DNA of 64,000 bases from Escherichia coli (GTDB lineage: Bacteria; Pseudomonadota; Gammaproteobacteria; Enterobacterales; Enterobacteriaceae). This document shows positions 38,385 to 38,690 of this stretch, piece by piece; the first letter of the stretch is position 1; each line of letters starts with the position of its first letter. Where the stretch lies: assembly GCF_003334815.1 (NCBI RefSeq), contig NZ_QOWO01000002.1, one strand, 5' to 3'. The notes beneath the pieces were generated by a model. That model was not told the DNA's origin and did not search any database. It worked only from the letters and a program-made list of their open reading frames with translations. A program made the position numbers and the translations under genes.

Positions 38385-38690
38385 TTAGCGTGTAGTGGAC
38401 GTGGTGGTTGAGGTGTTATGAGAACCGCCATCGCCACTGTCATTTGCTGCAACAACTGCCAACGTCGCCACACCAACAGCCGTTGCCACACCGACAACTG
38501 TCGCCGTGCCGACAGCGCCAGCAGCCACGCCACCAGTGGTAGTAGCAGTCGTGGTTGCGCCGGTAGTGGTCGTTGTGGTGCCAGTAGTACCCGTCGTTGC
38601 CTCGGTCCCGTTTGTTGCTTCAGGGGCAGCAAACGCAGCTGGCGTCGTCAACATGAAGGCCATAAGGATTGCAGAAAGCTTGTGTTTCAT
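38385..38690 (-). CDS. gfcA: Thr-rich secreted/membrane protein GfcA (101 aa)
   Basis: Translation MKHKLSAILMAFMLTTPAAFAAPEATNGTEATTGTTGTTTTTTGATTTATTTGG...; low-complexity Thr/Ala/Gly/Val core. Confidence 0.88.
   Translation of the reverse strand: MKHKLSAILMAFMLTTPAAFAAPEATNGTEATTGTTGTTTTTTGATTTATTTGGVAAGAVGTATVVGVATAVGVATLAVVAANDSGDGGSHNTSTTTSTTR

Follow-up and report, generated by a model that had tools for sequence, protein, structure and literature searches.

The 64,000-nt stretch of Escherichia coli DNA analysed here (the window; contig NZ_QOWO01000002.1 of RefSeq assembly GCF_003334815.1) carries gfcA (ymcD), with which the group 4 capsule operon gfcABCDE-etp-etk begins (Table 1). The preliminary description had named the gene correctly. 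Over its 306 nt, the sequence is 100% identical to the RefSeq-annotated gfcA encoding E. coli GfcA/YmcD (WP_001295358.1), the protein sequences are likewise identical, and both genes occupy the same genomic position. RefSeq gives the product of this identical DNA the name 'threonine-rich inner membrane protein GfcA', and a sequence search found gfcA at 99% identity or more in 2512 genomes. Synteny agrees with this assignment, as gfcA lies between cspH and gfcB in the order cspH, gfcA-gfcB-gfcC-gfcD-gfcE-etp-etk, appA, and the open reading frames (ORFs) of the window correspond to those annotated for this region in strain E2865. The same description had called gfcA the least understood gene of its operon, and GfcA is indeed still termed uncharacterized (PMC8592465; bioRxiv 10.1101/2023.12.04.565983).

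Table 1. Features of gfcA and its surroundings, numbered from the first nucleotide of the window.
Feature	Position	Strand	Basis or remark
gfcA (ymcD) coding sequence	38385..38690	-	ORF list and RefSeq identity; 101 codons plus TAA; start ATG at 38690, stop TAA at 38385-38387
Shine-Dalgarno AAGGA	38697..38701	-	6 nt 5' of ATG 38690; read from the sequence
Sec-type signal peptide, residues 1-21	38628..38690	-	MKHK, hydrophobic core, AFA/AP; by inspection and hydropathy
Thr/Gly/Ala tract, residues 22-53	38532..38627	-	56% Thr; predicted disorder, pLDDT <50
Gly/Ala/Val/Thr hydrophobic segment, residues 54-82	38445..38531	-	putative membrane helix; contains GxxxG
C-terminal tail NDSGDGGSHNTSTTTSTTR, residues 83-101	38388..38444	-	GDG motif and oligo-Thr; most conserved family signature
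In-frame 15-nt deletion	38556..38570	-	removes TTTGA; sole E. coli length variant found; bounded by 5-nt direct repeat ACCAC
Antisense ORF, 102 aa	38506..38814	+	by-product of GfcA amino-acid composition, not a gene
Antisense ORF	38418-38732	+	composition by-product, not a gene
Same-strand +1 frame ORF	38360-38632	-	composition by-product, not a gene
gfcB, YjbF-family lipoprotein	37634..38278	-	immediately downstream of gfcA; invariable neighbour of gfcA/yjbE-type genes
gfcC	36891-37637	-	intact ORF
gfcD	34795-36891	-	intact ORF
gfcE	33610-34770	-	intact ORF
etp	33176-33634	-	intact ORF
etk, inactivated	30975..33156	-	1-nt deletions near 32083 and 31795; TGG>TGA at 31251

The pre-protein of 101 amino acids consists of MKHKLSAILMAFMLTTPAAFA followed directly by APEATNGTEATTGTTGTTTTTTGATTTATTTGGVAAGAVGTATVVGVATAVGVATLAVVAANDSGDGGSHNTSTTTSTTR. 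Its start is favoured over an upstream ATG at 38708 because of the Shine-Dalgarno sequence in front of it, and in an alignment all family members begin with MKK or MKH at the equivalent position. Promoter and terminator consensus scans of positions 38250-39150 found nothing, and the hairpin into which the gfcA-gfcB spacer folds was not significant (z-score -0.84). In K-12, an IS1 element lies upstream of gfcA that is missing from the window; etk is a pseudogene in the window, and it is therefore likely that the system does not work here and that no capsule is made. The 14-nt etk deletion of S. flexneri 2a (PMC4368438) is absent from this etk, which rules out S. flexneri 2a as the origin of the window.

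A T/A/G/V-rich body behind a signal peptide had been proposed at the outset, and the product fits this description. GfcA contains 30 Thr, 20 Ala, 13 Gly and 9 Val in 101 residues (30% Thr; binomial P = 9e-15 against a background of 5.4%), and the mature part of 80 residues is 35% Thr and 81% T/A/G/V. The window has 110 ORFs with 80 aa or more, and of these the GfcA ORF has the highest Thr fraction (0.28, with a runner-up at 0.14 and a median of 0.059). Residues 54-82 form a run of 29 uncharged residues with a 19-residue Kyte-Doolittle maximum of 2.16. On the Hessa scale, the same segment sums to about +1 kcal/mol, a borderline figure obtained with literature values applied without position weighting. 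Standard predictors call the segment a transmembrane helix, which counts against a view of GfcA as a periplasmic partner. The tail that follows is acidic (NDSGDGG), and its terminal R is the only basic residue. AlphaFold (AF2) modelling of GfcA alone gave a mean pLDDT of 47.5 and one helix (residues 61-83, pLDDT 52-65); thus, the protein is predicted to be disordered except for this weak helix. Pfam and NCBIfam scans of GfcA returned no significant family, the best being DUF4781 (E = 4.5) and the WGxxGxxG family (E = 0.04, below cutoff).

The expression and function of gfcA are documented. In enteropathogenic E. coli (EPEC), gfcA is highly transcribed, with a transcript approximately 70-fold above those of other surface-structure genes; an in-frame gfcA deletion abolishes the capsule, which is restored by gfcA alone supplied in trans on pgfcA (PMC3853201). 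According to a passage of PMC8208086 that cites Ferrieres 2007, yjbE mRNA exceeds yjbFGH mRNA. The gene is an already known one, and the group 4 capsule of E. coli depends on its small, exported, Thr-rich product.

GfcA appears to be a divergent member of the YjbE family. Of 80 loci located via GfcB/YjbF in Enterobacterales, 76 have a small ORF directly upstream of the lipoprotein gene, and these 76 ORFs share a signal peptide, a region rich in A/G/S/T, a hydrophobic patch rich in Gly, and a tail of GDG plus oligo-Thr that ends in R or Q. The Pfam family YjbE (PF11106) was matched by 59 of 68 such context-defined relatives; the GfcA of the window did not match it at E <= 10. A profile that includes GfcA finds an 86-aa protein (P0032) at E = 1e-9 over positions 1-95. 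P0032 carries PF11106, is encoded upstream of a complete gfcBCDE-etp-etk-like operon and links GfcA to PF11106, so that homology is detectable through intermediates. When Escherichia GfcA was compared with YjbE-type profiles by hhalign, the signal peptide alone was aligned. Given this result and the missing PF11106 match, homology of the mature part would rest on the intermediates and on synteny. An NCBIfam scan of the YjbE-type relatives found nothing. For a low-complexity family of this kind, genomic context was the more productive route, as an HMM search of 1.84 billion representatives yielded 18 matches only. None of the GfcA and YjbE sequences had an exact match in a collection of 15 billion proteins.

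Conservation in the family is concentrated in particular parts of the protein. Across 68 sequences, K2, K3 and A21 of the signal peptide are nearly invariant; G54, A56, A57, G58 and G61 of the GxAAG motif region are invariant or nearly so, as are G86, D87, T93, T95-97 and T99 of the tail. In other genera, the tail reads GGGDG(S/A)NTGTTTTTTT(S/G)T(T)R/Q and is encoded by different codons; thus, the oligo-Thr run is kept at the protein level while the codons drift. The hydrophobic segment varies between subgroups. Kyte-Doolittle values are 1.8-2.45 and apolar runs 16-22 residues long in the GfcA-like and Pantoea/Erwinia-type homologues; in YjbE-type members, the apolar residues number only 8-11, the Kyte-Doolittle maximum lies at 1.0-1.4 and the Hessa scale sums to about +5. 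At the Thr tract, the family alignment is gapped in almost all other genera, and the long N-terminal tract is a lineage-specific insertion, present only in Escherichia among the genera sampled.

Within E. coli, gfcA shows constancy of length and purifying selection. The gene is exactly 306 nt in the approximately 155 records sampled from 3,608 E. coli alleles, with a full identity range of 94.8-100%. Differences are mostly synonymous, 19 of 24 polymorphic sites falling at codon position 3, and the most divergent allele differs synonymously in 12 codons and non-synonymously in 3. The main polymorphism is presence or absence, as the whole operon is missing in about a third of E. coli genomes and insertion sequences interrupt others. 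Length does vary between Escherichia species, since the E. albertii orthologues have 94-96 aa. Compared with E. albertii, identity is 17/32 in the Thr tract and 27/29, 18/19 and 21/21 in the other segments, the tract being the fastest-evolving segment of GfcA.

The explanation that we tentatively favour, at a little under an even chance when taken as a whole, is that GfcA is an exported YjbE-family protein acting as a periplasmic partner of GfcB, GfcC and GfcD, with the Thr tract as a fixed-length spacer. GfcA comprises a signal peptide (residues 1-21, AFA/AP), a tract of 32 residues with predicted disorder, a Gly-rich hydrophobic segment of 29 residues and a 19-residue tail with GDG and oligo-Thr. 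YjbE-family proteins are small, exported and encoded directly upstream of a module made up of the lipoprotein YjbF/GfcB, the periplasmic YjbG/GfcC and the outer-membrane barrel YjbH/GfcD. What the family conserves is the GxAAG motif together with the hydrophobic segment and the tail at the C-terminus; the Thr tract is a fast-evolving spacer of constant length within E. coli and no repeat of the slippage or contingency type. Once exported and freed of its signal peptide, the disordered protein may serve as an abundant partner of GfcB, GfcC and GfcD on the periplasmic side during capsule assembly. The conserved tail would then face the periplasm, and the marginally hydrophobic segment, instead of being a stop-transfer anchor of the classical Nout-Cin kind, may mediate self-association or contact with a membrane or barrel. 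This explanation does not assume a covalent glycan on GfcA. A LolA-like fold has been described for GfcB. An AF2 model of a GfcB-(GGGGS)6-GfcA fusion, judged by pLDDT and built on a paired alignment of just 26 sequences, gave more than 90 for GfcB and 25-29 for GfcA, which had no secondary structure. This is a weak negative for binding, and the unstructured GfcA lends no support to chaperoning of the hydrophobic segment by GfcB.

Unlikely, though deserving of serious weight, is the alternative that GfcA is a bitopic inner-membrane protein in which residues 54-82 form a stop-transfer helix (N out, C in), with a periplasmic Thr arm and a cytoplasmic oligo-Thr tail. The 29 uncharged residues are long enough to span the bilayer, the hydropathy of the segment and of the GfcA-like and Pantoea/Erwinia-type homologues is high, the only helix modelled by AF2 falls here, and the RefSeq product name says inner membrane protein. 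SOSUI also predicted one transmembrane helix, and effects related to the membrane were seen on overexpression in a D-Ala export screen (PMC10299036). Membrane localization or topology experiments on GfcA were not found in the literature searched. The helix, however, has a low pLDDT and is absent from the fusion model. Its C-terminal flank is acidic with a single basic residue at the very end, contrary to the positive-inside rule. The YjbE-type half of the family has an apolar patch too short for a bilayer, yet has the same tail and partners. The most conserved motif would also be placed in the cytoplasm, whereas GfcB, GfcC and GfcD are all periplasmic or outer-membrane proteins (PMC8592465). 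Taken together, the short apolar patch of YjbE-type members, the acidic flank and the location of the partners argue against a classical anchor and for a periplasmic role.

It seems improbable that GfcA is a carrier or primer glycoprotein, O-glycosylated on Thr/Ser with O-antigen units and exported via GfcD with the aid of GfcB and GfcC, that anchors the group 4 capsule. O-glycosylation or polysaccharide anchoring, also suggested in the preliminary description, was raised explicitly as a speculation by Larson et al. 2021 (PMC8592465). The extreme Thr content, the oligo-Thr tail conserved across genera, the predicted disorder and export, and a transcript abundant relative to those of the machinery genes are consistent with it, and the group 4 capsule is not linked to lipid A-core, its anchor having long been sought. 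The gfc operon, however, encodes no glycosyltransferase or O-oligosaccharyltransferase. E. coli K-12-type genomes are not known to encode PglL/PilO-type enzymes. The long Thr tract is missing from most family members and therefore cannot be an essential acceptor; it also has neither Pro nor a mucin-type tandem repeat. Quite improbable, too, is a reading of GfcA/YjbE not as an accessory factor but as the cargo of the GfcBCD/YjbFGH module, escorted across the periplasm into or through the two-barrel GfcD/YjbH, with covalent O-antigen or exopolysaccharide on its tail or tract. If true, GfcA would be the anchor, distinct from lipid A, that has long been sought for group 4 capsules.

Very improbable, and already largely refuted, is the proposal of a contingency locus in the Thr tract, where slipped-strand mispairing in ACN/GCN/GGN codons would produce frequent repeat-number variants and so tune or switch capsule expression. 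The gene had initially been thought to contain reiterated codons prone to slippage and length polymorphism. Its Thr codons are in fact mixed (ACG 10, ACC 9, ACT 7, ACA 4), exact direct repeats extend to 8 nt at most and homopolymers to 4 nt, no more than two identical codons occur in succession, and TRF reports a single 21-nt unit with 2.3 copies and a 74% match. Near-invariant length was found instead, the exception being the one deletion allele flanked by the 5-nt repeat, and this invariance goes together with documented expression and function (PMC3853201). The deletion was seen in two E. coli genomes only. In both, IS5 lies just upstream of gfcA, which suggests that the operon was already silenced there. 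The shorter E. albertii orthologues would also suit a contingency locus, as would the many frameshifted GfcA versions in protein databases; word-indexed homologue searches returned mostly frameshifted or truncated versions, but database frameshifts may be sequencing errors.

There is virtually no chance that one of the overlapping ORFs is the real gene, or that the locus acts as RNA only: long overlapping ORFs are present and the wobble-sharing antisense frame shows the same synonymous excess (13:3), but in all of 2000 random synonymous recodings of GfcA the 38506-38814 antisense frame stays open over 85 codons or more, so that its openness is uninformative and the antisense ORFs are composition artefacts, this frame has no signal peptide or Shine-Dalgarno sequence, the gfcA frame has both together with cross-genus protein conservation despite codon drift and is itself a genuine gene, the operon is transcribed from the same strand as gfcA, and the gene achieves complementation in trans (PMC3853201).

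The finding is an ordinary one, already known, and leaves the existing knowledge of gfcA unchanged. EPEC, enterohaemorrhagic E. coli and Shigella sonnei need the gene for their group 4 (O-antigen) capsule. A tempting idea, that of the Thr tract as a hypervariable slippage repeat, is removed, and the focus moves from the lineage-specific N-terminal tract to the Gly-rich hydrophobic segment and the GDG/oligo-Thr tail, which are common to YjbE across Enterobacterales.

Among known systems, GfcA resembles mucin-type PTS domains in being very Thr-rich, predicted disordered and extracytoplasmic. The label 'mucin-like' given to it earlier is apt for composition and for little else, as the tract is only 32 residues long, contains no Pro (none in residues 24-53) and no tandem repeat, has no identified glycosyltransferase partner and is dispensable at the family level. 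With the simple-sequence contingency loci of phase-variable genes in Neisseria, Haemophilus and Campylobacter, gfcA has in common a low-complexity coding sequence in a surface-structure gene and one rare microhomology deletion. Unlike these loci, gfcA lacks any perfect homopolymer or short tandem repeat, and its length is essentially fixed across E. coli.

A PEP-CTERM/GlyGly-CTERM sorting signal was also considered and rejected by inspection. GfcA is similar to proteins with such signals in being a low-complexity, Ser/Thr-rich secreted protein of a polysaccharide locus with Gly-Gly before a C-terminal hydrophobic segment. It differs in having no PEP motif and in the 19-residue acidic/oligo-Thr tail that follows this segment in place of a short basic cluster.

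The remaining comparison is with YjbE (PF11106, 'exopolysaccharide production protein'), the first gene product of yjbEFGH. GfcA differs from YjbE by an additional Thr-rich insertion of approximately 25 residues after the signal peptide, by a longer hydrophobic segment (29 versus 8-11 apolar residues) and by the tail NTSTTTSTTR in place of NTGTTTTTTTSTQ. The two have in common a small size, a signal peptide and a gene that immediately precedes that of the YjbF/GfcB lipoprotein, and both have an A/G/S/T-rich low-complexity body, GxAAG, a Gly-rich apolar patch, GDG and a C-terminal oligo-Thr run ending in R/Q.

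The gene at the head of the group 4 capsule operon encodes a 101-residue product whose four parts were read from the translation of the window ORF (see table). Among 5,426 complete E. coli genomes searched by megablast, the same 306 nt are annotated 'gfcA: threonine-rich inner membrane protein GfcA'. Together with the gene order cspH, gfcA gfcB gfcC gfcD gfcE etp etk, appA, this annotation confirms the name used in the preliminary description. The window copy is intact and does not differ from the K-12 allele. Its composition after the signal peptide, described as almost entirely Thr/Ala/Gly/Val, was also borne out: these four residues make up 81% of the mature protein. 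Thr accounts for 30 of the 101 residues, far beyond chance (binomial P ~9e-15), and GfcA ranks first for Thr content among the 110 window ORFs of 80 aa or more. Neither the gene nor its unusual composition is new; GfcA has been described as a protein of 101 aa and 30% Thr, possibly inner-membrane or secreted (Larson et al., 2021; PMC8592465).

Features of gfcA, its product and the neighbouring operon genes (window coordinates unless stated otherwise)
Feature	Position	Strand	Sequence or remark
gfcA ORF	38385-38690	minus	ATG at 38690, TAA at 38385-38387
Shine-Dalgarno sequence	6 nt upstream of gfcA ATG	minus	AAGGA
GfcA signal peptide			MKHKLSAILMAFMLTTPAAFA; typical Sec type, cleavage motif AFA↓AP
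GfcA Thr tract	residues 22-53		APEATNGTEATTGTTGTTTTTTGATTTATTTG; 56% Thr
GfcA hydrophobic segment	residues 54-82		GVAAGAVGTATVVGVATAVGVATLAVVAA; 97% T/A/G/V, uncharged
GfcA tail	residues 83-101		NDSGDGGSHNTSTTTSTTR
+1 reading frame	38360-38632	minus	...RRQLSVWQRLLVWRRWQLLQQMTVAMAVLITPQPPRPLHANTALTRRN
15-nt in-frame deletion	equivalent of 38556-38570; 96-aa allele at 701-991 of loci L092/L093		loses TTTGA; flanks are a 5-nt direct repeat, ACCAC
cspH-gfcA intergenic region	38691-39131		without IS1
Hairpin in gfcA-gfcB spacer	38324-38347	minus	CCCGGU-N12-ACCGGG
gfcD SNP cluster	35860-35977		14 SNPs
etk	30975-33156	minus	pseudogene
etk 1-nt deletions	near 32083 and 31795		
etk nonsense change	near 31251		TGG>TGA
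14-mer deleted in S. flexneri 2a etk	~33009-33022		intact

Pfam and NCBIfam scans of GfcA returned no significant match. When 1.84 billion representatives were searched with a profile, 18 matches came up, among them an 86-aa protein (P0032, E = 1e-9) with a precomputed match to Pfam YjbE (PF11106), whose gene lies upstream of a complete gfcBCDE-etp-etk-like operon. Since sequence searches perform poorly on low-complexity GfcA, a context search was chosen, with a GfcB/YjbF alignment as query against a single genome from each species. This yielded 80 loci (L012-L091) in Enterobacterales, from Escherichia, Cedecea, Superficieibacter, Mixta, Pantoea, Erwinia, Kluyvera, Enterobacter, Citrobacter and other genera. 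In 76 of them the product of the directly upstream gene, 71-115 aa long, shares one layout: after a signal peptide (MKK..., AxA↓AP) come an initial acidic/Gly/Ala portion containing GxAAG, a stretch rich in A/S/T/G and an apolar patch rich in Gly. Conservation is striking at the end, which reads GGGDG(S/A)NTGTTTTTTT(S/G)T(T) and then R (52 proteins) or Q (23 proteins). PF11106 is matched by 59 of the 68 distinct upstream-gene proteins. Two classes of apolar patch can be told apart, one of 16-22 residues (Pantoea/Erwinia/GfcA-like) and one of 8-11 residues (YjbE-like).

The oligo-Thr run of the tail keeps a constant length although its codons vary between genera, which reflects selection on the protein, not slippage. 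From Pantoea and Erwinia through to Citrobacter, the YjbE/GfcA-type tail preserves both its sequence and its length. The E. coli Thr tract occupies columns of the family alignment that are gaps in almost all other genera. The tract also evolves fastest among Escherichia orthologues, with 17/32 residues identical to E. albertii versus 27/29, 18/19 and 21/21 elsewhere in GfcA; it is thus a lineage-specific spacer. The family signature is the hydrophobic segment plus the GDG/oligo-Thr tail. When Escherichia GfcA was compared with YjbE-type profiles by hhalign, only the signal peptides aligned, so the case for homology of the mature part is built on intermediates, motifs in common and synteny that does not vary. 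A 15-billion-protein collection lacks the exact canonical GfcA and YjbE sequences, although they are encoded in thousands of genomes; small proteins of very low complexity may be removed by filters or left uncalled there.

The AlphaFold2 model of GfcA (68-sequence alignment) has a mean pLDDT of 47.5, with residues 21-65 and most of the tail below 50 and a sole helix, 61-83, at 52-65; it points to an essentially disordered protein. A LolA-like fold has been reported for GfcB (PMC8592465), so a GfcB-(GGGGS)6-GfcA fusion was modelled to see whether GfcB holds the hydrophobic segment. With only 26 paired sequences, GfcB was predicted at pLDDT >90 and GfcA at 25-29 without secondary structure, a weak negative that lends such holding no support. 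On the reading that we consider likeliest, GfcA would belong to the YjbE family as a small, intrinsically disordered protein exported by Sec, and would act stoichiometrically with the GfcB/C/D envelope module when the group 4 capsule is assembled. Its functional parts would be the Gly-rich segment, which is conserved, and the GDG/oligo-Thr tail, and the Thr tract a flexible spacer, confined to Escherichia among the genera sampled and constant in length in E. coli. We infer a periplasmic location for the tail and a partnership with GfcBCD.

Alternatively, GfcA may be a bitopic inner-membrane anchor inserted by stop-transfer, Nout-Cin. The Kyte-Doolittle value of the hydrophobic segment, 2.16 over 19 residues, fits the database name 'inner membrane protein', and summing literature values of the Hessa translocon scale, without position weighting, gives a borderline ~+1 kcal/mol. 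This topology is possible but, across the family, doubtful. The YjbE-type half of the family has only its 8-11 apolar residues (Kyte-Doolittle 1.0-1.4), yet the same tail and partners. The flank past the segment is acidic, its sole basic residue being the last, contrary to the positive-inside rule. Also, the most conserved motif would be cytoplasmic, whereas GfcB, GfcC and GfcD reside in the periplasm or the outer membrane (PMC8592465).

In EPEC, an in-frame gfcA deletion loses the capsule and a plasmid with gfcA alone restores it; the gfcA transcript is ~70-fold over those of other surface-structure genes (Thomassin et al., 2013; PMC3853201). High between-genus variability at the gfcA locus was reported by Bellieny-Rabelo et al. 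(bioRxiv 10.1101/391854), and a GfcD modelling preprint calls GfcA still entirely uncharacterised (bioRxiv 10.1101/2023.12.04.565983). Overexpressed YmcD (GfcA) was picked up in a D-alanine export screen (PMC10299036), an effect that may reflect membrane perturbation. Larson and colleagues (2021; PMC8592465) speculated that GfcA is perhaps O-antigen-modified and directed to GfcD. Glycosylation of GfcA is thus a published speculation, and a glycosylated carrier or cargo seems to us improbable.

The Thr tract had been described as built of reiterated codons, prone to slippage and length polymorphism. At the DNA level it is no slippage-prone repeat: the Thr codons are mixed (ACG 10, ACC 9, ACT 7, ACA 4), identical codons never exceed two consecutively, and within the gene exact direct repeats reach at most 8 nt and homopolymers 4 nt. 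Tandem Repeats Finder reported only a 21-nt unit in 2.3 copies with 74% match. The gene was found in 3,608 of the 5,426 complete E. coli genomes. Three listings were sampled, two evenly spaced over the whole ranking and one around the most divergent allele; all ~155 distinct records (94.8%-100% identity) are exactly 306 nt, low-frequency small indels being possible beyond the sample. Differences between alleles are mostly synonymous: of the codon changes in the most divergent allele, 12 are synonymous and 3 non-synonymous, and 19 of 24 polymorphic sites among alleles lie at codon position 3. The shorter E. albertii allele as query retrieved the sole E. coli length variant found, one 96-aa GfcA identical in two genomes (NZ_OY754834.1 and NZ_CM176349.1); both have, ~100 nt upstream of gfcA, an IS5 transposase gene with a frameshift. 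Because the deletion is bounded by a direct repeat, microhomology deletions are possible in the tract. Length variants are very rare in E. coli, and the slippage idea is essentially refuted. A contingency locus is highly improbable: the microhomology deletion does occur, but the sampled records are invariant in length and the codons mixed. The preliminary description had also considered a gene invariant across strains and without evidence of expression; length is indeed near constant, and expression is documented in the literature.

Antisense ORFs of 102 and 104 aa and a same-strand +1 ORF overlap gfcA. The antisense frame sharing wobble positions stayed open for at least 85 codons in 2,000/2,000 random synonymous recodings of GfcA, so its openness and apparent synonymous excess are uninformative. 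The overlapping ORFs are by-products of composition. As the Shine-Dalgarno sequence, signal peptide and cross-genus protein-level conservation all lie on the gfcA frame, an overlapping ORF as the real gene, or an RNA-only locus, is very improbable. Many database proteins (P0008-P0012, P0015, P0028) join the GfcA N-terminus to the +1-frame reading; single-base frameshifts, real or sequencing errors, are evidently common here in public assemblies.

The main polymorphism of gfcA is presence or absence, not repeat number. In ~1,800 of the 5,426 genomes, about one third (e.g. H204-H216), cspH adjoins appA and the whole gfcABCDE-etp-etk operon is absent; IS5-mediated deletions occasionally take out gfcA. 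In the window, etk, encoding the operon's Wzc-like tyrosine kinase, is a pseudogene, with two 1-nt deletions and a nonsense change relative to the intact etk of the annotated strain E. coli E2865. These lesions are shared by no complete E. coli genome (best matches 99.7%, 953 vs 951 nt). The 14-nt etk deletion of S. flexneri 2a was rejected for the window, where that 14-mer is intact; the window may derive from a different Shigella-like lineage. Because of the etk lesions, this strain probably lacks a working capsule system, though gfcA is intact. The gfcD SNPs, clustered in ~120 nt, look like a short recombination patch; the remainder of the 9.5-kb operon differs from E2865 at ~25 sites.

In K-12-type genomes, IS1 sits between cspH and gfcA; one such genome is otherwise 100% identical to the window across the 1,066-nt cspH-gfcA region. 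A simple sigma-70 scan of the intergenic region found no promoter-like site. Past the gfcA stop codon, the spacer to gfcB holds a hairpin with a U-run some 15 nt on; folding of the spacer does not outperform shuffled controls (z = -0.84), and the hairpin lacks a terminator consensus. The hairpin could add to a higher abundance of the first-gene transcript, as reported for the paralogous yjb operon.
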